From NCBI GenBank assembly GCA_023261645.1, contig JAHFOO010000003.1, positions 31,951 through 95,950 on the forward strand: a stretch of 64,000 nt of DNA, in the 5' to 3' direction. Below the pieces are notes generated by a model. The model had not been told where the DNA came from. It did not search any database and was given only the letters and a program-made list of their open reading frames with translations. The position numbers and the translations under genes were made by a program. Origin of the DNA: Candidatus Moraniibacteriota bacterium (lineage in GTDB: Bacteria > Patescibacteriota > Minisyncoccia > Moranbacterales > UBA1568). This document shows, piece after piece, positions 3,000 through 38,311 of this stretch (its first letter is position 1; each line of letters starts with the position of its first letter).

Positions 3000-3908
3000 A
3001 TGCTTCATTCAACAATAAAAGGAGCCGATTTCGGAGAAGAAGAGACTGCTTTCTATGCAGAGGCTTTCATGCGGAATATCGGACTACTGAAAGAGGAAGA
3101 ACAAGAAAAATTACACAACGCCCATATTGCGATAGCTGGTCTCGGTGGTGTCGGGGGCATTCACGCACTGAGTTTCGCACGCTTGGGAGTGGGAAGATTC
3201 AGTATTTCTGATAAGGATACTTTCGAAACTGCCAATATCAACCGTCAAGCCGGTGCCACGCAGGATACTTTCGGACAAGATAAAGCAGAGGTACTGGAAA
3301 AAATGATTCATGCTATCAACCCCTTTGCAGAAGTACGCCGATTCTCTCATGGTATTTCAGAAGAGACAGTGGACGCCTTCTTGGCCGATGCTTCTCTCGT
3401 CATCGATGGTTTGGATTTTTTTGAAATCGGTGTACGGCGGCTTCTCTTTCGCAAGGCCCAAGAAAAAAATCTCTCCGCCATCACCGCCGGTCCGGTCGGT
3501 TTCGGAGGAGCGATGCTTGTCTTCGATCCGCAAGGAATGAGTTTCGATGCTTATTTCGATCTCCACGATGGGATGAGCGAAGAAGAGATGGTGCTCCTCT
3601 TCGGTATCGGTCTCGCTCCGGCCCTCCTGCAGAGGAAATATTTCAAACCGGACACCATCGATCTCAAAAAAAGATCGGCGCCTTCCCTCGTCACAGGGAC
3701 GCTTTTTGCTTCCGGTCTTGTCACTTGTGAGGCGGTAAAAATTCTCCTTGGAGAAAAAGTCTACCCTGCACCGCACTTCTCCCAATTTGATCCGTACGTC
3801 CGTCGATATAAAAAAGGGTATCTCTGGGGAGGAAATCGCCATCCTCTTCAACGCTTCAAGAAATGGTATATCCTACGGAAATTGAAGCAACAACAAAAAA
3901 TTTCTTAA
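3000..3908 (+). CDS. ThiF/MoeB/HesA-family E1-like adenylyltransferase
   Basis: Rossmann nucleotide-binding motif IAIAGLGGVGGIHALSFARLGVGRFSISDKDTFETANINRQ. The track ORF starts at a TTG at 2919. The in-frame ATG at 3000 is preceded by AAGAGGAGA and is taken as the likely start. Confidence 0.8.
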   Translation: MLHSTIKGADFGEEETAFYAEAFMRNIGLLKEEEQEKLHNAHIAIAGLGGVGGIHALSFARLGVGRFSISDKDTFETANINRQAGATQDTFGQDKAEVLEKMIHAINPFAEVRRFSHGISEETVDAFLADASLVIDGLDFFEIGVRRLLFRKAQEKNLSAITAGPVGFGGAMLVFDPQGMSFDAYFDLHDGMSEEEMVLLFGIGLAPALLQRKYFKPDTIDLKKRSAPSLVTGTLFASGLVTCEAVKILLGEKVYPAPHFSQFDPYVRRYKKGYLWGGNRHPLQRFKKWYILRKLKQQQKIS

Positions 3909-5035
3909 AAACGCTTATGCCATCCCTTTCTCCAGAACTTCTGAAACAGATTCTTGAAGAAGCGCGTTTCGCTCCTTCCGGAGATAATATCCAGCCCTGG
4001 CTTTTCAAGATGTATCCTGATCATTCCCTCGTTCTCCATAGGAACGAGCCGGAAAATCTCCTTGCTTCCGATTATTTTCTGAATGCATCGTTTGTCGCAC
4101 TCGGTTGCATATTGGAGAATGTCGCCATCGCTTCGGAACATTATGGCTTTTCCAGTACTGTCGTTATCCACGAAGATTGTGTTTCTGATGAAACCCCTCA
4201 AGCTACCATCCATTTCATACCAACCACGCTTTCCGCTGAACAACAGGAATCGAATGAGAGACTTTTCCAGGTGATGTGCAAACGACATACTGATCGACGC
4301 CCCTACAAGAAGCAACCGCTCGATGATACGACGAAACGGCTTTTCGAAAAGACAGCCTTGGAGGGAGGCGGGAAACTCCACTTGATAGAAGGCGAAGAAA
4401 TGCTCGATGCTTTTGGAAAAACTCTCGGTAGTCACGATACGTATCTCTGGAATGATGCCACTCTGCGTGATAACCTGATCAGGTTCATTCATTTCTCCCA
4501 ATCAAATCATAGTGCCACAAGCGGAATGCCTCTCGATACGCTCGGTCTCGGAACGCTCAGCATTTTCTTCAAAACCGCCATTCTACTCGCGTACCGCATT
4601 CCTCTCCTGTGGAAAGTCATCTGTTTTGCTTCCCGATTCGGTACGCAAAAAACGCTTTCTGCTTCGAGCGCCTTGGTTTTTCTCACGCTCCCGAAACAGA
4701 AAATTCAGACGAGTCCGTTATCAGACACACCTACCAAAGACCTGGTACGCGGAGGAAGGATAGCGGAACGTCTCTGGTTACTGGCAGAAACGCTCGGATT
4801 GTCGCTCCAACCGCAATACGCCTTTGTCGCTATGGCTCATAATGCCGGGAATGAAAAATTGGGACAGTCTTTCCTTTCTGCCAACAAAAAAATCATCGCT
4901 TTTCTCAGATCTCACTGTCCGTGGTTCGAAAAAGAATCTCTCGTCTTCGCCTATCGCATCGGTTTCGTGGTGTCGAAGAAGAGAGCCTCTACGACAGAAC
5001 GCAAGAGCGTTGAAGAAATCCTGTGGCACACATAA
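3863..5035 (+). CDS. Tandem nitroreductase-fold (SagB/McbC-like FMN dehydrogenase) protein
   Basis: N-terminal domain shows RFAPSGDNIQPW (nitroreductase APSxxNxQPW signature). A second nitroreductase-like half ends ...GGRIAERLWLLAETLGLSLQP. It overlaps the 3' end of the ThiF-like gene by 46 nt. An alternative start is the ATG at 3917. Confidence 0.6.
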   Translation: MVYPTEIEATTKNFLKTLMPSLSPELLKQILEEARFAPSGDNIQPWLFKMYPDHSLVLHRNEPENLLASDYFLNASFVALGCILENVAIASEHYGFSSTVVIHEDCVSDETPQATIHFIPTTLSAEQQESNERLFQVMCKRHTDRRPYKKQPLDDTTKRLFEKTALEGGGKLHLIEGEEMLDAFGKTLGSHDTYLWNDATLRDNLIRFIHFSQSNHSATSGMPLDTLGLGTLSIFFKTAILLAYRIPLLWKVICFASRFGTQKTLSASSALVFLTLPKQKIQTSPLSDTPTKDLVRGGRIAERLWLLAETLGLSLQPQYAFVAMAHNAGNEKLGQSFLSANKKIIAFLRSHCPWFEKESLVFAYRIGFVVSKKRASTTERKSVEEILWHT

Positions 5036-5051
5036 ACTCAAATGTCTTTTC

Positions 5052-5819
5052 TTACTCGGATTTTTTCGGTGGAATGGCCCACGGACAGGTGTTATCGACA
5101 GCCAATTGAGCCCATATCTCACGATACCAGAGGCGATACCCTGCACTGCTCGGATGAAGCATATCGGGTGCGAAGTATTTCTTCGGTTCTTTTTCGAAAA
5201 AATAAAATTGACTGAAAAGATCCACGCAGGCGATGTCTCTCTCTTTGGCGACACGCGTGAAGATATTTTGAACACAAAGGGCGCGCGTACCGAGAAAACG
5301 TCGTAGCATCTTCGGAAAAAACGGGGCGAAACCAATATTGCTGTACACGAGCAGGATAGTCTTCCGACCGGAAAGAATATTCGCTAGATCGAGTACCCGT
5401 ACGATATCTTTTTCCAGACGGGCATACGCGCTCAAATGCCAGACATCGTTACCGCCGATACTGATGATGACAAGATCATACCGCTTCTCTTTTTTCTTCT
5501 CAAAAATGGCAATCAAGTCACGTGTCCGAAAGCCGTTTTCTGAAAGATTCTCAATCTCTACTCTCGGCAGATCGTGAGCAAGAAGACCACTTAGAGATTC
5601 TTCCGGTCTTGTTGCTCCGGTACCATAGCTCGTGCTGTCTCCGACGATGAGGATTCTTTTCTGTGCTCCTTTTGGATGCACGGAATATGAATGACTCATC
5701 AAAGAAAGACTCTTGTTGAGAGCTATACGCCACAGCATCCTCAGTGCCGTTACAACGATGAAACTATCCAAAAGGATGAAAAATATCGAAAAAAAATCGA
5801 GTCCGTTGAAAAAATCCAT
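5052..5819 (-). CDS. SGNH/GDSL-family hydrolase, membrane anchored
   Basis: N-terminal transmembrane helix, then the GDS block ILIVGDSTSYGTGA, the IGGNDV block and DMLHPSSAGY (the DxxH catalytic block). Confidence 0.75.
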   Translation of the reverse strand: MDFFNGLDFFSIFFILLDSFIVVTALRMLWRIALNKSLSLMSHSYSVHPKGAQKRILIVGDSTSYGTGATRPEESLSGLLAHDLPRVEIENLSENGFRTRDLIAIFEKKKEKRYDLVIISIGGNDVWHLSAYARLEKDIVRVLDLANILSGRKTILLVYSNIGFAPFFPKMLRRFLGTRALCVQNIFTRVAKERDIACVDLFSQFYFFEKEPKKYFAPDMLHPSSAGYRLWYREIWAQLAVDNTCPWAIPPKKSE

Positions 5820-5824
5820 ATTTT

Positions 5825-6628
5825 TTATTGATGCTTCAGCAATTCATCATAGCGCTCTGTAGAGAGTACTTCACGAAGTTTAGTATACCACAAGCCATAA
5901 CCCTCTCCGTTCGGATGAATCCCATCGGAAGCGAAAAGAAGATGTGGGGATTGCCTGAATGGGTCCGCTGCTTTCTCTTCAAAAAGATCGACGTAACTGA
6001 CTTCTGCAGATTCTGTCGCTTCCAGGAATAGTGCACGAATCTTTCTTGTCCTTTCTTCGAAATAACAGCTCAAAGGAAAACGAAAAAAAGGAATCGTGCC
6101 AAGATTGGCAGATGAAGATACCACAACCCTCCCAGCGCTTATTTTTTTTGCACTGGCGAAAATATAATCGAGTCTCCTCGAAAAATGCGTCAATGGTCTG
6201 AGTGTAAGCGTGTCTATCCCACCGATCTGGATGATGACAAGATCAGCCTTCATATCCGGATGATCTCTCAGAAAAACGGCTAGTTCTCTCGTCCCCATAC
6301 CTACCTTGGCATAGTTCCTGATGGAAATGAGAGGAAATTCCGCTCCCAATCGCCCAGCCAAAGAGAATTCCGGACGTTCCGATCCCGTGCCGGCTACCGT
6401 GCTGTCACCAAGAATAATGACTGTTTTTCCACTGCGCTCTCTCCTATACGGATGAGTCGTATAGCCTAAATACTTGGCAATACTGCCAAAAAGAATCAAA
6501 GAAAAAATCTCAAAAAGAGCATAACAAAAGATGATAAGTCCCAACCATTGAAGAAAAAGGAGAATGAGCATAAACAAGTGTTCCCCACATTGTAAAGAAT
6601 ATCGCTCCAAAAAGCAACTTACTCCCAA
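5825..6628 (-). CDS. SGNH/GDSL-family hydrolase, membrane anchored (tandem paralogue)
   Basis: VIILGDSTVAGTGS, IQIGGIDT and DGIHPNGEGY. Same architecture as the adjacent gene. Confidence 0.75.
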   Translation of the reverse strand: MGVSCFLERYSLQCGEHLFMLILLFLQWLGLIIFCYALFEIFSLILFGSIAKYLGYTTHPYRRERSGKTVIILGDSTVAGTGSERPEFSLAGRLGAEFPLISIRNYAKVGMGTRELAVFLRDHPDMKADLVIIQIGGIDTLTLRPLTHFSRRLDYIFASAKKISAGRVVVSSSANLGTIPFFRFPLSCYFEERTRKIRALFLEATESAEVSYVDLFEEKAADPFRQSPHLLFASDGIHPNGEGYGLWYTKLREVLSTERYDELLKHQ

Positions 6629-6702
6629 GGAACGCCCGACTTTCCCTGCAATAAAGAACTCTATTCTTGAGGAAATATGATATACTGGACAGAAATGCCT
6701 CT

Positions 6703-7320
6703 ATGGAAAATAGCTTTCTGCTGTTCCTCGGTCCGTGGTTACAATCGCACATCATTTTGTGGGGTCCTATCGCTATCTGGGTCACGGTCTTTCTCTTCGG
6801 TGAAAATGGAGCCTTGATCGCTTTTGCCTTCTCAGCACAAGGATTTATTTCACCAGCGGATGCTCTCATTTTTTCCTTCCTTGGATCCTTTTCTGCAGAT
6901 CTTTTCTGGTATTTCATCATAGTCAGCACCTTCCGTTCCTGGTATGAACGACATTTCAAGAAAACTCTCCGGGCATCAGACACCAAACGATCTTTCCTAA
7001 GTCTTGCAGACAATCACCCTTATGCCCTCTTGATTCTCCTGAAGTTCTTGGTCGGAGTGAGACTTATCTTGACTTTTTATATTCTTACCAAGAAAAAACT
7101 CCCCTTTCAGGCGTATTTTTTCTGTATCCTTCTCGGAAATATTCTCTTTGTAGCGGTACTATTCCCCATCGGATGGCTTCTTGGCACGGGTGCCAAAGAG
7201 GCTCTGCTCATAGGACAAGGCTTATCGAGCATCCTGACCACTCTCGTCATTGTCGGTATCACCAGTCAAGCTCTCCTGTATCTCATCCGTCGCGCCCTGC
7301 TTCGTTTTTCCAAAAAATAA
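6703..7320 (+). CDS. DedA/VTT-domain-like integral membrane protein
   Basis: Polytopic membrane protein. KFLVGVRLILTF resembles the DedA R-[FL]-[IV]-P-x-x-R region. The track ORF starts at a TTG at 6667. The ATG at 6703 (MENSF...) is the likelier start. Confidence 0.45.
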   Translation: MENSFLLFLGPWLQSHIILWGPIAIWVTVFLFGENGALIAFAFSAQGFISPADALIFSFLGSFSADLFWYFIIVSTFRSWYERHFKKTLRASDTKRSFLSLADNHPYALLILLKFLVGVRLILTFYILTKKKLPFQAYFFCILLGNILFVAVLFPIGWLLGTGAKEALLIGQGLSSILTTLVIVGITSQALLYLIRRALLRFSKK

Positions 7321-7496
7321 ATCCGGTGCAACCCGATTCGATTCAAATCAAGGCGAGTAAAATCGGATGTTCTAATTCATTATCCGGACATTCCTCCACG
7401 ATCGACTTCCATTTTTGTGCTATACTGAAAACAAAAGAATCACTATTATAAGGGCTTATTTCTCGAAGAAAATAAGAAAAAAATCACTCTAAAAAA

Positions 7497-8684
7497 ATGC
7501 CTTCTTTCTCTCTTCTTTGGATGTACGTAGCACGTGATATCGGTCGGAGCAAGGCGCTCTTCGCACTCATCATTTTCAGTCTGGCCGTTGCTTCAACGGC
7601 GCTCCTTCTTACCGTAGGAATCTTGGACGGTTTCCGAGTAATGCTGACCGATGGTGAACGTGGTTGGCTCGGCGACATCGTCATCACACCGCAAGACGAC
7701 GACCGTTCCATCGAACAAGTACGTTTCATAGAGGAACAACTCCAATCATTGCCGGAAGTAGAAGCTTTCAGCCTAAGAAGTCGAAGTCAGTCTGTACTCC
7801 GTTATGAAAACAGAAAAACGACTCCTTTTCAAATCTTGGGTATCGACCCAGCTTCGGATAGCAGAGTAACATGGCTCCAATCGAAAATAATCGAGGGAAC
7901 CTATTTCGAAAATTCCACCGCCGATGAAGTGATTCTGGGGAAAAACCTGAGTGACAGTCTCATCGGATCTTTGGATGACAACAAAAGTATTCATCCTGGT
8001 GAAGATATCTATGTTCTTTCGTCTTCCGGTGAATACAAACCCTACAGAGTGCGTGGCATCGTCGATGCAAAGACATTCTTCCCGAACTGGAGCCTCTTCT
8101 TCACGAAAGATCGTCTGGAGAAGATCGACGCGAGCAGCCGTAATTCACAACTGATCGTGAAAATCTCTGATGAAAAACAGGTGCTCGGTGTACGCGATTC
8201 ATTACGTGCACAATTTCCCGGGGCGACTGTAAAAACATGGGAAGAAGAGTCAAGCTACACTCGGGATATTCTCCAAACAGTGACATTTATCACACGCTCC
8301 ATCCATGATCTGCTCGTCCTGACGGTATTTATGGTCATCAGCATCGTCATCTTCATCAATGTCAACCAAAAGAAAAAACAGATCGGTATACTGAAGGCGA
8401 TGGGTACGAACAATTCTTTCATCGTCACCGCCTATATAACGCAGGCATCGATTTACGCAATCTTTGGTTTCATCATCGGCCTTGGTCTGTTCTTCATCTT
8501 CTTTTGGTGGTCCATCAATCATCCTATCCCCCTCCTTATCGGTGATTTCCGTTTACAAGTTTCTCTTATGACAGGTCTGAGTTCTTTCATCACTCTTGCT
8601 GTAGCGTCTATCGGCGGAGCCCTTATTCCATCCTTCTTGGCAGCCCGGATGCGTATTATCGATGTTATCCGCAACAATAATTGA
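7497..8684 (+). CDS. ABC transporter permease, FtsX/MacB-type
   Basis: N-terminal transmembrane helix, a periplasmic domain, and a C-terminal FtsX domain (ILKAMGTNNSFIVTAYITQASIYAIFGFIIGLGLF). Confidence 0.8.
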   Translation: MPSFSLLWMYVARDIGRSKALFALIIFSLAVASTALLLTVGILDGFRVMLTDGERGWLGDIVITPQDDDRSIEQVRFIEEQLQSLPEVEAFSLRSRSQSVLRYENRKTTPFQILGIDPASDSRVTWLQSKIIEGTYFENSTADEVILGKNLSDSLIGSLDDNKSIHPGEDIYVLSSSGEYKPYRVRGIVDAKTFFPNWSLFFTKDRLEKIDASSRNSQLIVKISDEKQVLGVRDSLRAQFPGATVKTWEEESSYTRDILQTVTFITRSIHDLLVLTVFMVISIVIFINVNQKKKQIGILKAMGTNNSFIVTAYITQASIYAIFGFIIGLGLFFIFFWWSINHPIPLLIGDFRLQVSLMTGLSSFITLAVASIGGALIPSFLAARMRIIDVIRNNN

Positions 8685-8690
8685 ACATCT

Positions 8691-9500
8691 ATGTTTCCCG
8701 CACATCTGCACCAACAAAGCTCGCAAATGACTCCCTACGCTTCAGGAAGAGATCATTCTTCTTCATCTCTGCCAGCACTTGTCAGTATCCGAAACATTGT
8801 GAGACGCTATGAACCTCCAGAAGGAGTTCCTATCACAGCCTTAAACGGTGTCAGTCTGGAAATTTACAAAGGTGAGTTCCTCGCAGTGACAGGTCATTCC
8901 GGTTCAGGCAAAAGTACTTTTTTGAACCTCATCGGACTCATTGATGAACCGAGCAGTGGCGATATCATCATAAACGGTCGCAATACCTCCCTTTTCAACG
9001 AAAAAGAACGTACCGAATTTCGATTGAATGCCTTGAGTTTCGTCTTCCAATCCTTCAATCTCATAGAAAATTTCACGGCACTCGAAAATATCGCCTTTCA
9101 ACTCCGTTTGCAAGGATATAGTAAAAGAGACGCTCACAAACAAGCTCAGGAAACACTGAACTATCTCGGCCTTCAAGACCGGGCCCGTCTCTACCCACGA
9201 GAATTGTCCGGAGGAGAACAACAGCGTATCGCCATCGGACGAGCGCTCGTCAAAGATTCCTTCCTTCTGTTGGCCGATGAACCAACGGCTCATCTCGATT
9301 CCAAGAATTCTCAAAATGTTATGGAACTTCTCTCCCAAGTCAATCGTGAATTCGGACGGACCATCGTTCTGGTCACTCACGAAACGGAAGAAACAGCATT
9401 CGCCAACCACACAGTCACGTTCCGCGATGGCCGGATAACCAGTGATGAGAGAGCAGAAACGGAAAATTCTGCTATAATACGGAAAACATCCTATGTTTAA
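8691..9500 (+). CDS. ABC transporter ATP-binding protein (MacB/LolD-type)
   Basis: Walker A GHSGSGKST, ABC signature LSGGEQQRIAIGRAL, Walker B LLADEPTAHLD. Its stop overlaps the next gene's start (ATGTTTAA). Confidence 0.9.
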   Translation: MFPAHLHQQSSQMTPYASGRDHSSSSLPALVSIRNIVRRYEPPEGVPITALNGVSLEIYKGEFLAVTGHSGSGKSTFLNLIGLIDEPSSGDIIINGRNTSLFNEKERTEFRLNALSFVFQSFNLIENFTALENIAFQLRLQGYSKRDAHKQAQETLNYLGLQDRARLYPRELSGGEQQRIAIGRALVKDSFLLLADEPTAHLDSKNSQNVMELLSQVNREFGRTIVLVTHETEETAFANHTVTFRDGRITSDERAETENSAIIRKTSYV

Positions 9501-11049
9501 ATTCATTCTTTCTTTCCTTATTATCGGAATATGCATCGCTTCGGGAATACTTTTTTGGTATCGGCCGGATTTTCTTCTCTGGCTGTCACCGGGAAACACC
9601 TCTGAACTCTCTGTACCCGTGGAATACAAATCAGGAGCGCTCGCACTCGAAGTGAACAATGCACAGATTGTCTCCAAAGATGAGTACAACCTTACCTTTC
9701 CGCTCTCTGGTACCGTGGATGAAGTATTTGCACAGGAAGGGACCGTAACGGATGTAGGTACCAAACTCGTGAAATTAGAAACACGCGAATTGGAATTGGA
9801 ACTCAAAAAGAACGAGGCTCTCTTGGCAGAAGCGGAAGCAAATCTCGCCAAACTCCGAAAGGGAACGCGTCTCGAAGAAATAGCCGTGTACGTCGATAAG
9901 AAGAACAGCTCCGAAACTACCCTGAAAAATCAGAAACAAGCAGCCATCGATACTGCCTACGATGCTTTCATTCAATCAGACGACGCTATACACAACAAAA
10001 CAGACCCTCTCTTCACGAATCCGAATACCGCTCCCCAACTCACGTTCACGCCGAGCGACAGTGGTCTTGAAAACGATATTGAATCCGAACGCTTGTCGCT
10101 CGAAAGCAAGCTCAACGACTGGAAGAATAGTGCCAAAGATATGAAAACATCCGGTGATATACAGAAGTATATCAATACTGCGAGAAATAACCTTGGAGAT
10201 GTTACCTCGTATTTGGACAAGATAGCTCTCGCTGTAAATGCTCTTGTGGCTGGCAGTATTACCCAAAACACGATTGACTCATGGAAAGTTTCCACTATCG
10301 CGGCACGTACCGCTGTCAGTACGGCGACATCGAATGTAGGCACTGCGGAAGCTTCTTTCAATGGTGCTCGTAAAGATCTCTCTGTAGCCGAAAGTGAGCT
10401 CGATTTGAAAGTAGCAGGAACACAATCCGATGACGTCATAGCAGCAGTGAATGCCGCCGAAGTTGCAAAAAATCAAATGGAGGTAGTCAAAGAACATATG
10501 CGACAATCGATCCTCACGGCTCCTGAGACGGGACTGACCATCGAGAAAATCTATCCGAAAAAAGGTGAGTACGTACAAAGCGGTATGCCTGTCGCCATCG
10601 TTTCACAATCGACCCTCGAAATACAGGTTGATGTCCCAGAAGAAGACATCAGCTCTGTTTCCATCGGGAATACGGCAACCCTCACGCTTTCCGCTCTTCC
10701 TCGTGAGAAAATTTCAGGTACCGTTTCCTCCATCGAACGGAAAGAAATAGAAAAGGAAGGGAGTATTTATTTTCGTTTCCATATTTCTCTTCAGTCAGAA
10801 TGGGAAAAGAACGAACGCTTACGTCCAGGAATGACAGGAAATATTCTCATCTTCGGAACGAATATCGGCAAGGCGCTCCGCATACCACAGTCCGCTCTCT
10901 ATACTCGGGACGGAGTGATCTATGTGAAAGTCATCCGTCCATCCAAAAAAATTGAGGAGGTGGGAGTGAAAGTAGGTGCCGAAGGAGAAGGCTACGCGCA
11001 GATTATGGCCGGTCTCGGTGCAGGAGACAAAGTAATACTCAAACCCTGA
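9493..11049 (+). CDS. HlyD/MacA-family periplasmic adaptor with a long coiled coil
   Basis: N-terminal transmembrane helix, an extended coiled-coil region, and a C-terminal beta-barrel/lipoyl-like segment (LRPGMTGNILIFGTNIGKALRIPQSALYTRDGVIYVKV). Translationally coupled to the ABC ATPase. Confidence 0.7.
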   Translation: MFKFILSFLIIGICIASGILFWYRPDFLLWLSPGNTSELSVPVEYKSGALALEVNNAQIVSKDEYNLTFPLSGTVDEVFAQEGTVTDVGTKLVKLETRELELELKKNEALLAEAEANLAKLRKGTRLEEIAVYVDKKNSSETTLKNQKQAAIDTAYDAFIQSDDAIHNKTDPLFTNPNTAPQLTFTPSDSGLENDIESERLSLESKLNDWKNSAKDMKTSGDIQKYINTARNNLGDVTSYLDKIALAVNALVAGSITQNTIDSWKVSTIAARTAVSTATSNVGTAEASFNGARKDLSVAESELDLKVAGTQSDDVIAAVNAAEVAKNQMEVVKEHMRQSILTAPETGLTIEKIYPKKGEYVQSGMPVAIVSQSTLEIQVDVPEEDISSVSIGNTATLTLSALPREKISGTVSSIERKEIEKEGSIYFRFHISLQSEWEKNERLRPGMTGNILIFGTNIGKALRIPQSALYTRDGVIYVKVIRPSKKIEEVGVKVGAEGEGYAQIMAGLGAGDKVILKP

Positions 11050-11053
11050 AGTT

Positions 11054-11671
11054 ATGTCTCTTGTTTGTAAAAAAGCAACTACCATCGGAGAAAAAAATCG
11101 GGCTCGCTCCATCGTAGAACACGAATATCTCAAGATGGGTTATCTCATACACAAAGAGGCAACACCTCCACAGATACCCAGTACTCCCTATCTCAGGGAA
11201 GCAACATCCGAAACATATGCTCTCTATTTAGACAAGAAAATCATCGGCACCATTTCGATAATTATGGACTCGGTACACGGACTGCCGATGGACGCGCTTT
11301 TCAAAAGCGAACTTGATACCTTTCGGAAGAAAGACGAGCACCTCGCAGAAGTGGTACAGCTCGCCATCGATGAAGAGATACTCGCTCAATCAGGAATGCT
11401 CAAGAAAAACATTGAGCGTCTCCGTTTCCTTACTTCATTGTTTCAAGCAGTACTCCGATCTGCTCATCGGGCACATATCAGCACATTATGCATTATGGTA
11501 AACCCAAAGCACGATACTTTTTATGAACACATCGGTTTCCGGACCATTGGAGAGGAGAAATCCTATCCCCCTCTCCAGAATGCACCGGCTGTACCGAAAG
11601 TGCTCACACTCAAAAACAAGCTAAATAGTATCGTAAAAAGCCACATCCTAAGCCAAATATTATATATTTAG
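11054..11671 (+). CDS. N-acyl amino acid synthase-like GNAT-fold N-acyltransferase (OlsB/FeeM family)
   Basis: A 205-aa protein. Its size and pattern (RSIVEHEYLKMGYL...) fit the acyl-ACP-dependent N-acyltransferase (Acetyltransf_5, autoinducer-synthase-like) family. It sits directly upstream of the PlsC-like, PPTase and ACP genes. Confidence 0.45.
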   Translation: MSLVCKKATTIGEKNRARSIVEHEYLKMGYLIHKEATPPQIPSTPYLREATSETYALYLDKKIIGTISIIMDSVHGLPMDALFKSELDTFRKKDEHLAEVVQLAIDEEILAQSGMLKKNIERLRFLTSLFQAVLRSAHRAHISTLCIMVNPKHDTFYEHIGFRTIGEEKSYPPLQNAPAVPKVLTLKNKLNSIVKSHILSQILYI

Positions 11672-11737
11672 AAAGACATTCTGAGTAAGGACAAAGGTGC
11701 TATAATAGAAGTACGCTTTGATGATCATAGAGCTCTT

Positions 11738-12421
11738 ATGGCTGATGACGATAAACAGACAATGTCTCTTTTCAGAAAGATGAAGGATGGTACCATCGTC
11801 TTTTTCCAATTACTTTCGTATTTTTTCTTTCTTTTTTTCTTCCGCCCGTTTCTTCATATTAAACGCACATTACCGGATAATATCTCACGATTGAATCGCG
11901 GATCGCTCCTGGTAGCGAACCATCAGGCAAAAACCGACCCATTCATCGTTATGGGATATCTGCCGTTGCTTTCGTTTCTGAAACTTATTCCTGTACGTTT
12001 CCCAGCAGACAATCATTATATGAAAATTCCTCTCGTCGGTTCCGTTCTCCGGCTTTTCGGATGTTATGATGTCGGAGGGAACACACGTGAACGAATGCTT
12101 GTGCTTCTCCGTACATGTGAGCTCATCCGGTCCGGAAAAACAGTCTTTCTTTTCCCTGAAGGAGAGATTGCTCAATCGGAGAGAGTTCCATTTCAGAAGG
12201 GCATCAACTTTTTCATACGCGAAGCGAAAGCAGTCATTTTCGTAAGAATAGATGGCTTCAACCCTCAGAATATTGCGTCACTGGAAGAAAAGGAACGTCG
12301 ACTCTCCTATGGAGAAGTATGCGATACCGAGCTCACCAGCCTCGATGTCGTCAAACTGCAGGATTATTTCGACCTCCTGACAGAAAGCCGTTCCCCATTC
12401 ATTATCCGCAATGATAAATAG
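11738..12421 (+). CDS. Lysophospholipid/1-acylglycerol-3-phosphate O-acyltransferase family (PlsC/OlsA-like)
   Basis: HX4D motif NHQAKTDPF and FPEGE motif (LFPEGEIAQSERV). Confidence 0.75.
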   Translation: MADDDKQTMSLFRKMKDGTIVFFQLLSYFFFLFFFRPFLHIKRTLPDNISRLNRGSLLVANHQAKTDPFIVMGYLPLLSFLKLIPVRFPADNHYMKIPLVGSVLRLFGCYDVGGNTRERMLVLLRTCELIRSGKTVFLFPEGEIAQSERVPFQKGINFFIREAKAVIFVRIDGFNPQNIASLEEKERRLSYGEVCDTELTSLDVVKLQDYFDLLTESRSPFIIRNDK

Positions 12422-12431
12422 ATAGTGCCTT

Positions 12432-13103
12432 ATGCAGATTTCCTTCTGCGAATATTCCTCAGTAGCCACCGTATCACCGGAACAGTTCCTCAATAAGGAA
12501 GAATACCTTCGGTGGTCGAAGCTTCCTCAAAAGAAAAAAATGAGTTCCCTCATCGGCAAGGTGACTGCGAAACGAGCGACGCAAGCTCTCTGGGAAAAAC
12601 ATTGCGGAGCAATACTTCCATATCATACTATCAATATACGACATACCTCTGCCGGTATGCCACGCATACATACATATCCGATTCTCCTCAGCATCAGCCA
12701 TACCGATGACTGTGGCATCGCTCTGGTCGCTTTGGATAAGCCTCATCTTAGGATAGGAATAGATATCGAACGCATCCGCACCTTCAATCAGAAATTCATC
12801 GATGGCTTCCTCACAAAAAATGAACAATCCTGGTGCGAAGAGAAGTCTGCCGATGAAAAAAAGAGACGACAGACGCTCTCTTGGTCTTACAAAGAAGCCT
12901 TCCTCAAAGCTCTCGGCACAGGATTACGAGAACATCCGAAAACTGTTGAGATTTCTCCCATAACTTCTGCAAAGGTTTTCCTCTCTTGCAACGGCTATCG
13001 AGGAGAAGGCAGGGAGATAACACTCCCAGGAAAATGGGGGAACTATGTCGCTACTGTAGTAGAAATATATCCATTCACAAAAAAAGAATCCCTGTATCAA
13101 TAA
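12432..13103 (+). CDS. 4'-phosphopantetheinyl transferase
   Basis: GIDIERI and WSYKEAFLKALGTG motifs. Confidence 0.75.
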   Translation: MQISFCEYSSVATVSPEQFLNKEEYLRWSKLPQKKKMSSLIGKVTAKRATQALWEKHCGAILPYHTINIRHTSAGMPRIHTYPILLSISHTDDCGIALVALDKPHLRIGIDIERIRTFNQKFIDGFLTKNEQSWCEEKSADEKKRRQTLSWSYKEAFLKALGTGLREHPKTVEISPITSAKVFLSCNGYRGEGREITLPGKWGNYVATVVEIYPFTKKESLYQ

Positions 13104-13116
13104 TATCTCTGCGACT

Positions 13117-13362
13117 ATGCCACACACTGACACTCTCACAACCAAGGTATATGAAATCATACACCAAGCGACACGAGTCCCCCTCGAAAAGATTTCACTA
13201 AATGCCGAACTTGAAGACCTTGTTGATGATTCCATACAACTGTTCCAGCTCATCCTTTCTTTCGAAGAGGCTTTCGGAATGCGCGCGAAGTATCAAGATC
13301 TTATGAAAATCATCACGGTCGGCGATATTGTCGATTATCTGAAAAAAATACAGTCTCTTTGA
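13117..13362 (+). CDS. Acyl carrier protein
   Basis: An 81-aa protein with the DLVDDSIQLFQLI motif (DS serine attachment site) in an ACP-like helical context. Confidence 0.8.
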   Translation: MPHTDTLTTKVYEIIHQATRVPLEKISLNAELEDLVDDSIQLFQLILSFEEAFGMRAKYQDLMKIITVGDIVDYLKKIQSL

Positions 13363-13406: not shown

Positions 13407-14750
13407 TCACTCATACCTCAAGGCTTCCAAAGCATGAATTTTTGAGGCGCGCATAGCAGGAAATATCCCCGTCACCAATCCGAGGAAAAAGATGAAGACA
13501 ATGATAGAAATAATGAATATGGAAGGGACTTCCACAAATGACAATGGGGTAACATTATATTTCTCCCCCAAAAAATTGATAACATAATTTACACCTCTGG
13601 CCACTCCATAACCACCGAGCAACCCGATGCTTCCGCCAAAAAAACTGATCAGAAACGCTTCAAAAATAAACATTTTAAATATATCAGCTCGCTTGGTTCC
13701 GAGCGCTTTGAGGATACCAACCTCCTTGGTACGTTGCAAAAGAGAGATACTCAAAGTATTCAACATTCCCATTGCAGAAATAGACATTATGATGGTACCG
13801 AAAATCACCAGAATAATCCGAACTATCAGAAAAAATGAATTGATTTCGGTAATAGTATCGATAATACTCTCTGTAGTGAAGGCTGTCTGCTCTATCTGAA
13901 GACGTACCGACTCAATGACACTGTCATCCTTGACACGTACTTTTGCAAACTGTCCTGCGACATTGCCATATCGTTTCTGAAACTCTTCAAAAGAAAGAAA
14001 TGCGTACACAGCATCATCCTTGGTTTGGTCTTTCACAATACCCACTATCGTAAGCGTATCATCAGTATCTCTCTTGGACGTTTCTTCCGGTGTTGATTCT
14101 GTATCATTAGCAAACATATCAGCTGTCACAGTACTCGTGTATGTTATCTGTTTTCCGATGCTCTCTTCCGGTTTCTCAAAACCGAGGAGATTGGCAAGTT
14201 TTGGTGTGATAAGGACGCCATTCGATTCAGTAAAAATCTTGCTCCCTATTTCTTGATTGATGTCAGAACGAGCCAAATCAAGATAGTGTCGACTGATCAC
14301 ATTGATAACAACATCCGTCTGTGTATCACCATTTGAAAATTTTCCTCCGACACTTGTTCGTGTTTCCACTTGCTCAACTCCTCCGATATTTCTCATTCTC
14401 TCAAGTGCGACATTGTCCATCAAAATAAAATTATCGAGACTCTTATTGCTCACATCGATGATATTGCTCGGATTATTCTTGGTCACCTCTCGAATGACCA
14501 TATCCTGGATTCCGAATCCAAGCGAGATGAGTAAAGTAATGATGCCGATGCCGATGCCAACACCTCCAATCGTCAGGATAGAACGGAGTTTGTTTGAAAT
14601 CATATTCCGATATCCGATCAATAATACCGATGAAAATTTCATATGAGCAAAAGGTTCTCTCTTTGTCGAGCGCGTGCGAACGAAAAGATTCCTCTTCCTA
14701 TCCGGAGGAGATGCTGGTTGTTGGTTGCTGTTTCGTAATGAAGAATGCAT
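13407..14750 (-). CDS. ABC transporter permease, MacB/FtsX-type with large periplasmic domain
   Basis: N-terminal transmembrane helix, a roughly 220-aa periplasmic domain, and a C-terminal FtsX four-helix region (ILKALGTKRADIFKMFIFEAFLISFFGGSIGLLGG). Confidence 0.8.
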   Translation of the reverse strand: MHSSLRNSNQQPASPPDRKRNLFVRTRSTKREPFAHMKFSSVLLIGYRNMISNKLRSILTIGGVGIGIGIITLLISLGFGIQDMVIREVTKNNPSNIIDVSNKSLDNFILMDNVALERMRNIGGVEQVETRTSVGGKFSNGDTQTDVVINVISRHYLDLARSDINQEIGSKIFTESNGVLITPKLANLLGFEKPEESIGKQITYTSTVTADMFANDTESTPEETSKRDTDDTLTIVGIVKDQTKDDAVYAFLSFEEFQKRYGNVAGQFAKVRVKDDSVIESVRLQIEQTAFTTESIIDTITEINSFFLIVRIILVIFGTIIMSISAMGMLNTLSISLLQRTKEVGILKALGTKRADIFKMFIFEAFLISFFGGSIGLLGGYGVARGVNYVINFLGEKYNVTPLSFVEVPSIFIISIIVFIFFLGLVTGIFPAMRASKIHALEALRYE

Positions 14751-14756
14751 ATTTTT

Positions 14757-15497
14757 TTAACTTTTTTTCATATCTTCCTCGATCATATCAAACGAATTCT
14801 GATTAATGACATCAGAAACGATTTTCCCATCCACCATACTGACAATTCTCGAACTGAACTTATACTGATCCGTGTTGTGCGTCACCATCAGAATGGTGAT
14901 GCCAAACTGCTTTGAAATATTTCTCACAAGTGTCATCAGTACCTCTCCTGCTTTCATATCGAGGTTGCCAGTCGGCTCATCAGCAATGATGAACTTCGGA
15001 TTAAGCAGGAGCGAACGAGCAAGAGCGATCCGTTGTTGCTGACCTCCGGAAAGATCGAATGGACGATGATTTGCCCACTCTCCCATCCCCACAAGTTCAA
15101 TCAGTTTGGCAGCAATAGTGACGCTTTCGTGAAATGTCTTGCCAGCGATAACTCCTGGAATGGCGATATTTTCGATTACTGTCAATGATTTGATCCAAAA
15201 TGGCTGTTGCGGAATAAAACCAATATTTTTATTCCTGAAATTTGCTCTCCAGTCCTTGCTCTGGGTCCAAATATCGTCGAGCTCGATAGTAACCGTTCCT
15301 TCTGTGGGGCTTTCGAGACCATAAATGGTATGAAGAAGCGTCGATTTTCCACAACCGGAAGGACCAACTAACAATATGAACTCACCTTTACGAACTTCAA
15401 GGTTGATACCGTGTAACACCTGAATGTCTTGAGTTCCTACGCGAAAAGACTTCTTCAGATTCATCACTTTGATAACAATTTCTTTTTCTTCGACCAT
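14757..15497 (-). CDS. ABC transporter ATP-binding protein (MacB/LolD-type)
   Basis: Walker A GPSGCGKST, signature LSGGQQQRIALARSL, Walker B IIADEPTGNLD. Confidence 0.9.
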   Translation of the reverse strand: MVEEKEIVIKVMNLKKSFRVGTQDIQVLHGINLEVRKGEFILLVGPSGCGKSTLLHTIYGLESPTEGTVTIELDDIWTQSKDWRANFRNKNIGFIPQQPFWIKSLTVIENIAIPGVIAGKTFHESVTIAAKLIELVGMGEWANHRPFDLSGGQQQRIALARSLLLNPKFIIADEPTGNLDMKAGEVLMTLVRNISKQFGITILMVTHNTDQYKFSSRIVSMVDGKIVSDVINQNSFDMIEEDMKKS

Positions 15498-15515
15498 ATG
15501 TATTTCTTAGAAAGT

Positions 15516-18500
15516 CTAATTGCCACGAAGTCTCGACATCCATCCGAAATTATTGAGAAAGGTTCTCGTCACCACTTCAGCCGCGCTGGATGTAGCTTGT
15601 TCTACCGGAACAGTAACTGCATCAGAGACCGTTACATTTTCTGCCTCATCATACGCTTCTATCTGATAACTATACACATCCCCCGCCTCCGCCGGAATAG
15701 TAATGAGATGGTAGGTATTGTAAGTATCGTCGCTCGTCGACTGCTCAAATGATTTTGTTACGATTCCCTTCGCATATGCCACGTGTATACGTGATGCTTC
15801 GTCGGTTTCGATTCTGATATACACATTGGCCTGAGCATTTGTGCCTCGTCCAGACACTCGTCCCATTGCCTTGTTTGAAATAATTCTTGGTGGGCGAGAA
15901 TCAGTACGTGTCGTAACCTTTTGTTCGAAGGGTCTCGCCTGAATATGATACTGGTCATTTCCGGTCACGGTAACCATATATTCTACCGCAGGATCAAGAC
16001 TGGAAATCTCCGCCGTATGTTCTGTCGTCAAATCTTCTGTCAAATATGTGTGGTTGTCTCCCGATCCTGATTTATAGTATATCAGAGTCGATGTTGGTAC
16101 ATTGGTCTTGTACGTGATAGTCACTGTCGGTAAATCGACATTTTCTTTGTTTTCTATAATCACCTCAGACACTACCGGTTCTTCCGGCGTACTGAATGAA
16201 TACTGGTCCGAAGAGAACGTGTTCAAATCACCATCGATACAGTCTATCTGTGCCGAATAATCAGAAGTAGGCTGAAGATTGTCTATCTTCTGGATATGAC
16301 TCGATCCCCCCGATGTTTCCTCGATACTATACGAACCATATTTCAGAGTACAGGTAGCGCTCACGTTTGTCTTCCAATTGACATAGGCTGTGTACAATTG
16401 AATGTCAGTAATCGTCAAATCAGAAATGACCGGCGGTGGCAACGTCGTGAATGTATCCACTGTTGACGTACCGATATTGCCATCCGGATCGATATACTTC
16501 ACGCTATAAAAATATTTCGTCCCAGCATCCAGCCCTTTCACCAAGACTCCGTGTGTCGTCACTGAATCCACCTGTCCAGTTGTCTCACCAAGCGAGATGG
16601 ACTTTCCATATTCGATAAATGAACTCGCCACTCTATCGGTCGCCCACTCGAAAGTCGCTTGAAAAGATTGTGTCGTATAGCTCGGCGTACCGACTAATTT
16701 TGGCGCGGTCGTGTATTTTCCTGTCGGAATAATCGAGACTGTCGAAGAAGCGGCGGAATAATTATTCGTCTTGTCTTTGGACTTCACATAATAATAATAC
16801 AGCTTACTTTCCAAAGTAGTATCACCGGATGCAAGGAGGATCTCGCCGGAATCGACATAAGCACTTCCTGTCGTCTTGGCAATTTCGGTGAATGTAACGT
16901 TATCTTCGGAACGATAAATGACAAACCCATCAAAGTTGGCAACATTGATGCTATCCGGACGAGCCCACTTCACTGCGACACCATATTTGGCGTTTTCTCT
17001 GTCTGAAGTATCAAAAACCTGTACATTACCCGGAATAGGCGGGTTACTAGTATCAGCCGTAAATGTTACTGTAGCATAGTTCCCCCATTCGATATTTCCC
17101 GATTCGTCCCCAGCCACCACGAAGAAGAGGTTGTCACCCTTCTGAGTCGCAAAGGCGCTCGGGCCAGCCGCTTTGGCCGTCGTCGCCACTGAGTTGTTTG
17201 CCGTTGGCAACATATTGATCGAATAATGATAAATAATTTTCGTCGGATCCCCTGCGTACGAAGCTGGTGTATCCCAGGAAAAAGTAAATGAGTTATTCGT
17301 AGAAGAAGATGGTGTCGCAGTCAAACTCTGTGGTGGTGTCGGCGCGCTGGCGCTGTAATAGTATTCCTGCGGAAGTGGCGGAGAAACATTACCAGCACCA
17401 TCCACCACTCGAATATAAAATTTATTCTTACCAGATTGATAGGCACCAACGATATGATTCACATTCGGAATAGTCAGTGCCACTTGGTTGACATCAGGGA
17501 TATCTACCCAGACATTTGGAACATCACCATCAGTACGATACTGTAGTTTCGCCACACCGGAAAACAGATCAGCTGAATCAGCTGACCAGGTGAAAGCAAA
17601 ATTATCCGTCGCCGTATAGCCGGTCGGGAGAACAGAAACAACAGACGGGTTGGTCGGAGCGATATTATCAAACTTGTAGATGAACGCACTGTACGAAGTA
17701 GATGTGATCATTCCCGCATTATCTTTTGTCATTATCTTCAAATAGTATGTCTGTCCTGCTGACAAACTGCTCGCCGTATAATTATTCGCTGTTTGAAAAT
17801 TCACCGGGTCGGCATTTATGTCTATACCGAAGTACACATAGTAGCCAGCAACTCCTGATCCGCCTACACCATCAGTCGCGCCATCGGCGACATCGACAGC
17901 TGGCCACTCAAAGTACGGCGCCGTATGATTGTACCAGGTATCCGTCGTCATACTCGTTACCTTTGTTCCGTCAGTATACGCACTGATGGCACTTGGATTG
18001 GTCGGTTCCGTGATGTCCTGATAGTAACTCACTGCATAATCAGTGATGAGTGGTGAGAAAATCTGATCCGATGATGAAAGATTCGCTCGTACTTGAAAAA
18101 AACCATTCGGTAGAGAGTTTATTTTGAATGTATGTGTTGTCCCCAATACCTGTTCATTGGAAACATTTGTCCAATTCTCCCACGTCGCTCCATCAGCAGA
18201 AGTTCTCGTTTCAAATGTGACAAAAGTATTGTTTGGTAACGTGTAGTTGACTGAAAAATTCGCCCACTTGTACACAGAAACGAGATTGATAGTCTCCGAA
18301 GTATAAACCCCCGTCTTCTGAAAACCAGTGCCGTTATCACTCGAACTCACCACGTAACTATAAAGTCCGTCTGGATAGGAGTTGGTGCCGTTTCCGGCGA
18401 TGACCCAGTTCCGATTGCTTGCGTGCTTCTGAAAACCACCAGTATTCACTTGCGCAGGAATATCCGTCACAGCACTCCAAGTACCTGAAAGACCATCGGC

Positions 18501-23213: not shown

Positions 23214-23481
23214 GAGATTTCTATACTCGTTTTTCCTCGAGAAAGGTCTTTTTCAAAAAGCGAATTCCACACACAAAACAAAGAGTTTCCAAGAACCTTC
23301 TGGTTATAGTATACCACACAATGAAAAGAAAAAAAGTAAGAAATCCCCTTACAAATGCAAAAAAGAGCCATTCTCCAATAATGATACCTCACAACTATTT
23401 CCTCTCTCTTTCCTCTTGACAGATAATTGGTTTACTGATAAACTAGGAAACTGTTTTGTTGATAATTTTAAGAAATTTTTT

Positions 23482-23949
23482 ATGTATACAAATGACTCTC
23501 TCTCCCCTATTCTTCCTATCATTCATATTGCCCATCGATTCGAGGCGATCGCCCAAAGATATATCTTCCAACCGACAGGCTTCTCCCCTATGAGTATGAA
23601 TATCTTGCGATTGTTGCGTGACAATGGACCTCTGATTGCGAGTGATCTGATACGAATGACGGCCACAACCAAGTCGAATATGAGCCAACGACTGAGTTTC
23701 CTCGAAAAAGAACACCTCGTTTCAAGGATGCCTGCAAAAGAAAATGGCGACAAACGAAAAACAATGATTTCTCTCACAACATCAGGAAAGAAGAAAATCG
23801 CCACTCTTGAAGAAAGAATCAAAAAGGCTGAGATATCATTCGAAAAAAAATTCACCCCAAAAGAATTAGCCGACCATAAAGCCTTCTTTGAAAAACTCAG
23901 CATAATCCTCGACAATGGTGAATGTGAATTAACCAAAATATTTAAATAA
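23482..23949 (+). CDS. MarR-family transcriptional regulator
   Basis: Winged-helix region MNILRLLRDNGPLIASDLIRMTATTKSNMSQRLSFLEKEHLVSRMPAKENGDKRKTMISLT. The track ORF from 22912 extends over the divergent promoter region. The in-frame ATG at 23482 gives a typical 155-aa MarR. Confidence 0.7.
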   Translation: MYTNDSLSPILPIIHIAHRFEAIAQRYIFQPTGFSPMSMNILRLLRDNGPLIASDLIRMTATTKSNMSQRLSFLEKEHLVSRMPAKENGDKRKTMISLTTSGKKKIATLEERIKKAEISFEKKFTPKELADHKAFFEKLSIILDNGECELTKIFK

Positions 23950-23954
23950 CCGGC

Positions 23955-25067: not shown

Positions 25068-25094
25068 TCTCCCTCTAAAAATATCTCTCATCGT

Positions 25095-28496: not shown

Positions 28497-28630
28497 GAAA
28501 GCTTCATTCATAAGGATAGGGAGCAATTGGTATGATCCATCCGTTATCGCGAGCATCCTCTTCGAGAGAAAAATTGAAGCAACCGATTACAATCGAAACA
28601 GTAATTCGTATCTCGACAAAAAAATCAAAA

Positions 28631-38294: not shown

Positions 38295-38311
38295 AGAACC
38301 TGTTCCTTTTG

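Follow-up and report, generated by a model that had tools for sequence, protein, structure and literature searches.

A conserved Patescibacteria gene cluster with a predicted acyl-oxazolone-type pathway, a private acyl carrier protein and an exporter

Introduction

What would a bacterium of a reduced-genome lineage make with a synthase of N-acyl amino acids, a second acyltransferase and a carrier protein of its own? The question is raised by a locus of Candidatus Moraniibacteriota bacterium (contig JAHFOO010000003.1, positions 31,951 to 95,950; this whole 64-kb stretch is referred to below as the window), in which positions 11054-13362 encode a FeeM-family N-acyltransferase, a PlsC-like acyltransferase, a 4'-phosphopantetheinyl transferase (PPTase) and an acyl carrier protein (ACP). 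A sequence-only reading had taken these four genes as a self-contained module with the logic of ornithine-lipid synthesis, bracketed by two MacB-type exporters, and had called this notable if the host were of a reduced-genome lineage. The host is an ultra-small, reduced-genome member of the Moranbacteria, within the candidate phyla radiation (CPR), and the RpoD protein encoded in the window is 88% identical to Candidatus Moranbacteria/Moraniibacteriota proteins. Patescibacteria have been reported to lack the synthesis of lipids, amino acids and nucleotides, and no route of lipid uptake or processing is known for them (PMC11665869).

The analysis presented here points to a larger unit. Judged from the sequence, window ~3000-13362, and not 11054-13362 alone, is one conserved cluster of 12 genes for biosynthesis and export; the limits are drawn there because genes for a ThiF-like enzyme, a flavin oxidase of the nitroreductase superfamily (NTR), SGNH hydrolase, a DedA-like protein and an exporter recur together with the FeeM, PlsC, PPTase and ACP genes in related clusters. 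On balance, we consider it probable that this cluster is a Patescibacteria variant of the acyl-oxazolone, or N-acyl-dehydro-amino-acid, pathway, making and exporting a modified N-acyl amino acid lipid.

Acyl-oxazolones came to light as recently as 2020-2025, and in M. tuberculosis their genes are tied to macrophage survival and oxidative-stress resistance. The characterised trio of synthase, ThiF-like enzyme and flavin-dependent oxidase (FDO) is represented by OxzAB, TyzACB and TrzAS (PMC10404671, PMC12856293, bioRxiv 10.1101/2020.06.11.147165). In M. tuberculosis TyzA acylates Tyr or Phe, TyzB cyclises the product with ATP and TyzC desaturates it with O2 (PMC10404671); OxzA/OxzB is the system of Pseudoalteromonas rubra (bioRxiv 10.1101/2020.06.11.147165), while TrzA/TrzS are Rv1356c/Rv1355c, and D217 and R540 variants of TrzS have been studied (PMC12856293). 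The combination of NasY, ThiF and NTR leads to N-acyl dehydrotyrosines, namely the stieleriacines, thalassotalic acids and kyonggic acids (PMC12479983).

Genes of the cluster

The 12 genes are as follows, with the bit scores of their profile matches.

3000..3908, plus strand: ATP-dependent ThiF-like adenylating enzyme, predicted cyclase, homologue of TyzB and of the N-terminal parts of OxzB and TrzS (PF00899, 144 bits)
3917..5035, plus strand: Acg-fold flavin oxidase (FDO/NTR) of the nitroreductase superfamily (NCBIfam 'Rv1355c family', 127 bits)
5052..5819, minus strand: SGNH/GDSL hydrolase 1 with an N-terminal membrane anchor (Lipase_GDSL_2, 75.6 bits)
5825..6571 (longest reading frame to 6628), minus strand: SGNH/GDSL hydrolase 2 with an N-terminal membrane anchor (Lipase_GDSL_2, 73.8 bits)
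6703..7320 (longest reading frame from 6667), plus strand: DedA/VTT-like membrane protein with five transmembrane (TM) segments (VTT_dom, 24.7 bits)
7497..8684, plus strand: MacB-type FtsX permease (MacB_PCD, 47 bits; FtsX, 47 bits; LolCE/MacB matches in NCBIfam)
8691..9500, plus strand: ABC ATPase of MacB/LolD type (ABC_tran, 108 bits; LolD, 206 bits; MacB, 186 bits)
9493..11049, plus strand: HlyD-type membrane-fusion/adaptor protein (HlyD_3, 58 bits; RND_mfp TIGR01730, 131 bits, above its cut-off)
11054..11671, plus strand: FeeM-family N-acyl amino acid synthase, GNAT fold, 205 aa (PF21926, 114 bits, cut-off 27)
11738..12421, plus strand: PlsC/LPLAT-family acyltransferase, membrane-associated (PF01553, 56 bits)
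12432..13103, plus strand: Sfp-type 4'-phosphopantetheinyl transferase, 223 aa (ACPS PF01648, 63 bits)
13117..13362, plus strand: dedicated acyl carrier protein (PP-binding PF00550, 37 bits; ACP models of NCBIfam, 50 bits)

The four open reading frames (ORFs) at 11054-13362 each score above their own Pfam gathering cut-off and all catalytic motifs of the FeeM, PlsC-like, PPTase and ACP proteins are intact, and the coordinates given to them in the sequence-only reading stand. The description of the four as self-contained does not: nothing in the cluster appears able to load the ACP.

The longest ORF of the ThiF gene begins at 2919, and the start at 3000 is that of the gene call on a sibling contig. 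The ThiF and NTR genes are 8 bp apart. The tandem SGNH hydrolases that had been noticed upstream are confirmed by GDS60, GGND122 and DxxH219 motifs and a TM segment at 7-25 in the first protein, and by GDS, GGID and DxxH motifs and one TM segment in the second; a sequence search of the PDB gave no match for the SGNH protein. The DedA call is a weak one, with five predicted hydrophobic segments and a VTT_dom score below the cut-off of 33.9. Both kinds of protein, like the exporter that follows, are conserved partners, as described below.

Window 7497-11049 has the composition of a MacB-type tripartite exporter: an FtsX permease with a MacB periplasmic core, a separate ATPase and a HlyD adaptor. 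The genes are closely packed up to FeeM, with 6 bp between FtsX and ATPase, an overlap of 8 bp between ATPase and HlyD and 4 bp between HlyD and FeeM. An outer-membrane partner is not present at the cluster, nor is one expected in CPR bacteria. A scan for promoters and terminators gave no clear signals, the number of promoter-like sites being close to that expected from shuffled sequence.

The ThiF-like enzyme and the flavin oxidase

The window ThiF matches the NCBIfam models PRK08223 (363 bits, cut-off 266), PRK14851 (330 bits) and PRK14852 (241 bits, at model positions 308-581). Its motifs GLGGVG74, NINRQ106 and DGLD163 align to the adenylation motif (LDCTD) of ThiF 1ZFN, and the aligned Asp lies in the motif to which the site of the TrzS D217A mutation belongs. 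There is only one Cys in the sequence, and a CxxC zinc site is absent; the second-best relative in the PDB is the cyclodehydratase TcdA.

The 'Rv1355c family' match of the window NTR extends over model positions 371-718, that is, over the whole FDO domain, and is followed by matches to the Acg family (116 bits) and to PRK14851 (100 bits). The protein carries the RFAPSGDNIQPW motif, a feature used as a test of flavin mononucleotide (FMN) binding. Its AlphaFold2 model, built on a shallow alignment (8 NTR relatives from a word-indexed protein search), has a pLDDT of 79.6 and a pTM of 0.84. The top PDB match of the model, by a wide margin, is 2YMV, the M. smegmatis homologue of Acg (E=1.4e-12, TM-scores 0.70/0.79), while ordinary dimeric nitroreductases match just half of it; as modelled, the window NTR thus has the single-chain Acg/FDO pseudo-dimer fold. 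2YMV was also the closest solved FDO structure used by the authors of the TrzS study (PMC12856293).

FeeM, ThiF and NTR of the window correspond to consecutive segments (32-204, 308-581 and 614-739, respectively) of PRK14852, an NCBIfam model of 989 aa named 'hypothetical protein', with ThiF and NTR giving further matches to PRK14851 and 'Rv1355c family', both of them two-domain models. Since three window proteins map onto one fused model, they are expected to act together (Rosetta-stone evidence).

The carrier-protein arm

The window FeeM is 39% identical (E=2.8e-26) to FeeM (PDB ID: 2G0B), which comes from soil environmental DNA, is the closest characterised sequence and has a dedicated ACP, FeeL. 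It carries the invariant motifs GLPMD, E99, NPKH and NAPA, and matches the N-terminal segment of PRK14852 with 42 bits. The sequence-only reading had called it a FeeM/OlsB-family enzyme. In the profile check that was proposed for 11054..11671 the FeeM model scores, as listed above, and the OlsB-type model PF13444 (Acetyltransf_5) gives no match at E<=0.1; the FeeM part of the assignment is therefore kept and the OlsB part rejected. The only further Pfam match is a sub-threshold one to Acetyltransf_10. FeeM is one of the few GNATs that depend on a carrier protein, working with its own ACP, FeeL (PMC11685415, PMC10404671).

In a neighbour-joining tree of 174 FeeM homologues (100 bootstrap replicates, with a Kimura distance correction capped at high divergence), the short FeeMs (185-235 aa) that neighbour ACP, PPTase and PlsC genes form one clade, which includes both FeeM 2G0B and the window FeeM. 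This clade is recovered exactly in 60/100 replicates, and with a Jaccard similarity of at least 0.8 in 94/100. In most of the sister clusters there is a start/stop overlap between the ACP and FeeM genes.

The serine of the window ACP, Ser39, lies within DDSI. The PPTase has the features of the Sfp type (~220-230 aa, two AcpS-like halves, G-x-D-[IV]-E and W/F-x-x-K-E): it is Sfp-sized, its motifs are GIDIE and WSYKEAFLK, each half finds AcpS structures as matches, and Sfp 1QR0 is a further match. The PlsC-like protein contains H62-x4-D67 and FPEG139. Its best NCBIfam matches are to the acyltransferase domain of Aas-type acyl-ACP:phospholipid acyltransferases and none is to an OlsA-specific model, so that its family membership is generic; among PDB sequences it gives only a weak match, to PlsC 5KYM. 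A search of the cluster, of the ORFs scanned in the window and of the genes scanned in sister CPR clusters turned up no AMP-binding, fatty-acid-activating protein.

Conservation of the gene set

Scans with a FeeM alignment gave 64 loci in genomes and 80 more in metagenomes (individual loci are given by L numbers). Co-occurrence was counted in 31 FeeM loci flanked on both sides by 8 kb of sequence or more, leaving out the ACP- and fusion-linked clades. A ThiF of the window type (E<1e-40, 40-56% identity) lies within 10 kb of FeeM in 17 of these 31 loci, and in 16 of them ThiF and NTR are both within this distance, the NTR often directly adjacent. The trio loci belong to Desulfobacterota, Methylomirabilota, Binatia, Omnitrophota and Acidobacteriota.

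The gene set of the window recurs, in rearranged order and with identities of 30-50%, in at least 11 further lineages, which places the arrangement far from chance. A census of 11 distinct related lineages, on contigs of at least 7 kb, found ACP and PPTase in all 11, ThiF in 10, PlsC in 9 (L007 and L087 are without it), SGNH hydrolase and parts of a MacB-type exporter in 8 each, and NTR and DedA in 6 each. The grouping of a PlsC-type acyltransferase, a PPTase and a private ACP with FeeM, made in the sequence-only reading, is borne out by their conservation in these counts. The following gene orders were found:

L008, L073, L076-L078 and L081: ThiF-PlsC-PPT-ACP-FeeM as a single block
L079: ThiF-PlsC-PPT-ACP-DedA-FeeM
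L072: ThiF-PlsC-PPT-ACP-FtsX-ATPase-DedA-FeeM, all on one strand
L070: FtsX-ATPase-HlyD-FeeM, as in the window (an order also seen in L150 and L152)
L150 and L152 (found from the NTR search): NTR-methyltransferase-SGNH-FtsX-ATPase-HlyD-FeeM-PlsC-ThiF-PPT-ACP

The order in L150 and L152 is that of the window with ThiF placed between PlsC and PPTase, inside the four-gene module. All named genomes with the ACP-equipped version are Patescibacteria (Paceibacterota, Zambryskiibacteriota and Saccharibacteria). A methyltransferase dependent on S-adenosylmethionine (SAM) is encoded in the sister clusters L007, L073, L150 and L152, and a FAD_binding_4 oxidase in two independent clusters of CPR type (L008 3295-4926 and L077 2444-4042), where it may be an alternative or additional oxidising enzyme; the ~530-aa genes of L077 are this oxidase and an unannotated protein. 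The presence of such genes in sister clusters fits a tailored natural product.

Two clusters have further peculiarities. In L007 (Zambryskiibacteriota) two FeeM paralogues (8017-8718 and 9071-9664) flank the ACP gene, and in L072 FeeM is directly followed, at 10830-13063, by a second, divergent ThiF-like gene and then by an amino-acid dehydrogenase of the Glu/Leu/Phe/Val type. The genes of the distant FeeM homologues P0003 and P0005 stand alone, and their contexts are uninformative.

At six loci, FeeM homologues lie directly beside genes for tri-domain proteins of 877-989 aa, with AMP-binding, PP-binding and PlsC acyltransferase domains:

L029 1917-4886: Planctomycetales
L069 8435-11392: Omnitrophota
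L080 6817-9519, L091 4531-7164, L103 2497-5175 and L128 6411-9260: metagenome contigs

ThiF is near the tri-domain gene in three of the four loci with long flanks (L069, L080 and L128). The FeeMs that adjoin small PlsC genes or tri-domain proteins form the clade neighbouring the ACP-linked one (bootstrap 79/100), and homology to the separate ACP and PlsC of the window is detectable in the corresponding domains of several fusions. The occurrence of ACP-PlsC fusions beside FeeM indicates that ACP and PlsC are one acyl-transfer unit with FeeM. The fusions differ from the window cluster in having a fatty-acid-activating domain of their own. No functional characterisation of the tri-domain proteins was found in the literature searched.

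Proposed pathway

As far as homology can tell, all the defining features of the Oxz/Tyz/Trz pathway that are accessible to sequence analysis are found in the window: a GNAT synthase similar to FeeM and acyl-homoserine lactone synthases, a ThiF with an intact adenylation motif, an NTR of the FDO type, and adjacent ThiF and FDO genes in one cluster with the synthase. Because ThiF, NTR and a FeeM-fold synthase are the characterised acyl-oxazolone trio, the product is likely, by analogy, to be a cyclised or desaturated N-acyl (aromatic) amino acid and not a diacyl aminolipid of the ornithine-lipid kind.

The Sfp-type PPTase, to go by its family, would convert the private apo-ACP into holo-ACP. The ACP might then be acylated by the PlsC-like enzyme or the SGNH hydrolases, using scavenged lipids or lysolipids, or alternatively by an unlinked acyl-ACP synthetase. 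The FeeM-type synthase is predicted to transfer the acyl chain from acyl-ACP to the α-amine of an amino acid, probably an aromatic one; we infer this step because of the 39% identity to the ACP-dependent FeeM and the membership of the same clade. By homology to TyzB, OxzB and TrzS, the ThiF-like enzyme would adenylate the carboxylate and drive its cyclodehydration to a 5(4H)-oxazolone, and the Acg-fold flavin oxidase, as a homologue of TyzC, OxzB and TrzS, would introduce the Cα=Cβ double bond. The end product would be an unsaturated acyl-oxazolone or a ring-opened N-acyl-dehydro-amino acid.

The remaining proteins are placed by linkage. The PlsC-like enzyme, whose role is uncertain, might use the same ACP as donor in a second acyl transfer, which would either O-acylate the product or re-acylate lipid. 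The membrane-anchored SGNH hydrolases may open the labile ring or harvest acyl chains; a ring-opening step is plausible because the end products of Stieleria, Thalassotalea and Massilia are ring-opened. Finally, the conserved linkage of the SGNH hydrolases, DedA and the MacB-type FtsX/ATPase/HlyD pump suggests that the product would be processed and moved to the cell surface.

Several points weigh against this assignment. All steps beyond the domain assignments rest on homology and the product is a predicted one, while what PlsC, SGNH and DedA would do is guesswork. A stretch of 6 kb that includes genes of the opposite strand separates FeeM from ThiF and NTR in the window. The NTR was detected in only six of the 11 related clusters, and L008 lacks it within 20 kb and has the FAD-linked oxidase instead, so that desaturation may be confined to some of the clusters. 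O2 is required by the characterised desaturases, and an anaerobic life is probable for many hosts of the trio (Desulfobacterota, groundwater CPR). As for the acyl donor, OxzA, TyzA and TrzA were assayed in vitro with acyl-CoA and not with acyl-ACP; the support for the ACP-linked FeeM clade is only moderate; and His145/Phe148 of FeeM, implicated in FeeL binding and equivalent to H153/F156 of the window protein, do not discriminate, since they are conserved across nearly the whole FeeM family, and were dropped as a marker of ACP use. Lastly, as judged from the encoded domains, nothing in the cluster or the 64-kb window appears able to acylate the ACP.

The window also encodes a hemerythrin-domain protein (40813-41397), which hints at O2 sensing or binding and has a bearing on the O2 need of the predicted desaturase.

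Comparison with known systems

A close parallel in gene content is TyzACB (Rv2336, Rv2338c and Rv2337c; PMC10404671), which shares with the window a separate FeeM-fold synthase, a stand-alone ThiF cyclase and an Acg-like FDO of ~372 aa, the latter two encoded by adjacent genes, as well as a lipid transporter gene (mmpL9) next door. It differs in the length of TyzA (322 aa) and its use of acyl-CoA in vitro, in the absence of a private ACP, PPTase, PlsC, SGNH and DedA, in having a transporter of the MmpL/RND type instead of MacB, and in its aerobic host with an abundant fatty-acid metabolism. OxzAB and TrzAS likewise combine synthase, ThiF and FDO activities to give oxazolones from N-acyl aromatic amino acids; in these systems ThiF and FDO are fused into one protein, in the window they are separate genes, and the two-gene operons contain no carrier protein, PPTase, second acyltransferase or exporter. 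The clusters of NasY with ThiF and nitroreductase hold the same trio with a methyltransferase, as do the sister clusters L007, L073, L150 and L152, but their hosts are Planctomycetota and Proteobacteria and no ACP, PPTase, PlsC or exporter module has been reported for them (PMC12479983).

Alternative explanations

The ornithine-lipid logic of the sequence-only reading, which had overlooked the ThiF and NTR genes, survives as a partial resemblance in the pairing of an N-acyltransferase with a lysophospholipid acyltransferase. Developed into a pathway, it would have FeeM N-acylate an amino acid and the PlsC-like enzyme O-acylate a hydroxyl on it, giving a diacyl membrane aminolipid in place of phospholipid, with ThiF and NTR peripheral or unrelated. 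We regard this as unlikely. An N-acyltransferase followed by an O-acyltransferase of the LPLAT family is established aminolipid logic, and in OlsB/OlsA, GlsB/GlsA and OlsF the former belongs to the same GNAT super-group as FeeM and the PlsC/LPLAT acyltransferase uses acyl-ACP (PMC11631085); the HX4D and FPEG motifs of such enzymes are present in the window protein, at the level of generic family membership. It also agrees with this pathway that PlsC is kept near FeeM and ACP in nine of the 11 lineages, that at six loci of other phyla FeeM abuts an AMP-ligase-ACP-PlsC protein in which ACP and PlsC are one unit, and that some clusters have no detectable NTR. The window synthase, however, is not of the OlsB/PF13444 type, and the known aminolipid systems use a housekeeping ACP and 3-hydroxyacyl chains from type II fatty-acid synthesis (FAS II) and contain no ThiF or FDO. 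O-acylation of the OlsA type needs such a 3-hydroxyacyl chain; the window ORFs scanned include no fab genes, and CPR bacteria are reported to be without lipid synthesis (PMC11665869). Two clusters, L007 and L087, do without PlsC. ThiF, on the other hand, occurs in 10 of the 11 lineages, usually adjoining PlsC, and in L150 and L152 is embedded between PlsC and PPTase; a gene so conserved and so embedded is not peripheral.

The contiguous ThiF-PlsC-PPT-ACP order of most related clusters could also be read as a relay, in which ThiF, acting as an E1-like enzyme, would adenylate the N-acyl amino acid and pass it to the phosphopantetheine thiol of the ACP, from which PlsC would esterify it onto a scavenged lysolipid or envelope acceptor, so that the ACP would carry the product. 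This would agree with the lack of a fatty-acid ligase for loading the ACP, with the dispensability of NTR in several clusters and with the chemistry of the E1 superfamily, which normally ends in a thioester (PMC12596934). It appears very unlikely, in that the window ThiF is 41-56% identical to the ThiFs of trio clusters devoid of ACP, which suggests the same cyclase function. Most clusters show translational coupling of ACP with FeeM, FeeM itself is ACP-dependent (PMC11685415), and in the relay FeeM would require a different acyl donor. A further explanation, to which we also give little weight, is that the SGNH lipases, PlsC, an ACP shuttle, a DedA flippase and the ABC pump serve in lipid scavenging and membrane remodelling, maintaining the cell's own phospholipids, with FeeM, ThiF and NTR loosely associated. 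CPR bacteria are reported to lack lipid synthesis and are enriched in lysolipids, no route of uptake or breakdown being known (PMC11665869), the best NCBIfam matches of PlsC are enzymes of Aas-type lysophospholipid re-acylation, and SGNH and DedA are conserved in the cluster. Nevertheless, it was homology to FeeM and NTR that led to the cluster, and FeeM is part of it in every case; the cluster is rare among CPR bacteria, with only 4 Patescibacteria loci among the 64 genome matches and few close homologues, which is hard to square with an essential housekeeping role; and the presence of tailoring genes, for methyltransferase and oxidase, speaks for a specialised metabolite. With regard to the relay, we know of no precedent for a transfer from ThiF to an ACP.

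The acyl-oxazolone assignment is therefore preferred. Within and beyond it lies a more far-reaching proposal, which we consider quite unlikely: acyl chains would be transferred without a ligase from host lipids or lysolipids to the private ACP, by way of the PlsC-like enzyme, the SGNH enzymes or both, and the outcome would be either an exported, reactive azlactone (oxazolone) lipid or a ThiF-ACP-PlsC relay product on envelope lipids, modifying the surface of symbiont or host. If true, this would be a ligase-independent route of ACP loading, and the episymbiotic lifestyle would have its first specialised-lipid effector, with lipid scavenging linked to specialised chemistry.

The second exporter and a strain-variable block

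A second FtsX/ATPase pair is present at 13407-15497 on the minus strand, so that both of the flanking exporters described at the outset exist. A 99.5%-identical sibling contig, L001, runs collinear with the window (identity values of 99.6% and 98.4%) but has a deletion of window 13612-28508 (14.9 kb). This block holds most of the second FtsX gene, the second ATPase gene, a 2565-aa protein that is repetitive as judged by eye, a MarR-like gene (345 aa), a HlyD gene and an AcrB-type pump. L001 retains the 3'-end remnant of the second FtsX gene, the junction has a CATAA microhomology and all 12 cluster genes are intact. As the second ABC pair lies in a strain-variable block, it is placed outside the module, and bracketing by two exporters is rejected as a functional feature. 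The AcrB-type resistance-nodulation-division (RND) pump of the block is unexpected for a CPR bacterium.

Other features of the window

Beyond the two MacB sets, the window is unusually dense in efflux systems: the RND pump with its adaptor (23955-28496), a MarR gene together with two half-size exporters of the ABC_membrane/ABC_tran kind (30919-34504 and adjacent), and a major facilitator superfamily (MFS) transporter with two HlyD-like adaptors (36810-40043). The tRNA-Asn(GTT) gene at 43634-44256, minus strand, has its anticodon loop split by a group I intron of 548 nt (RF00028, 72 bits at 43682-43926) that carries an ORF for a 107-aa HNH-type endonuclease (43872-44195); ARAGORN missed it in default mode and detected it only with long introns permitted. 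Near this tRNA lie the genes for the hemerythrin protein and for a GNAT-ASCH fusion protein (41730-43070). A 1083-aa ORF at 51380-54631 has no Pfam match, and of four ORFs of 315-371 aa at 55895-60413 two have sub-threshold Pfam matches (WxL-interacting peptidoglycan-binding and Fn3-like) and two have none.

Significance

The enzymatic core of the cluster is known from the Oxz, Tyz and Trz systems. What appears to be new is a ligase-less version with a private ACP, PPTase, PlsC, SGNH, DedA and MacB-type exporter; in the literature searched, no link of oxazolone or N-acyl amino acid biosynthesis to Patescibacteria was found. The ACP, PPTase and PlsC are presumably carried because no fatty-acid synthesis or acyl-CoA pool is available to these cells. 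If the assignment is correct, the pathway would reach into the most reduced of bacteria and into many organisms that are probably anaerobic, which would call its assumed O2 dependence into question. With its own ACP, PPTase and PlsC, this version makes the source of acyl chains in CPR bacteria directly testable, and at 10 kb the cluster is compact and suited to heterologous expression.

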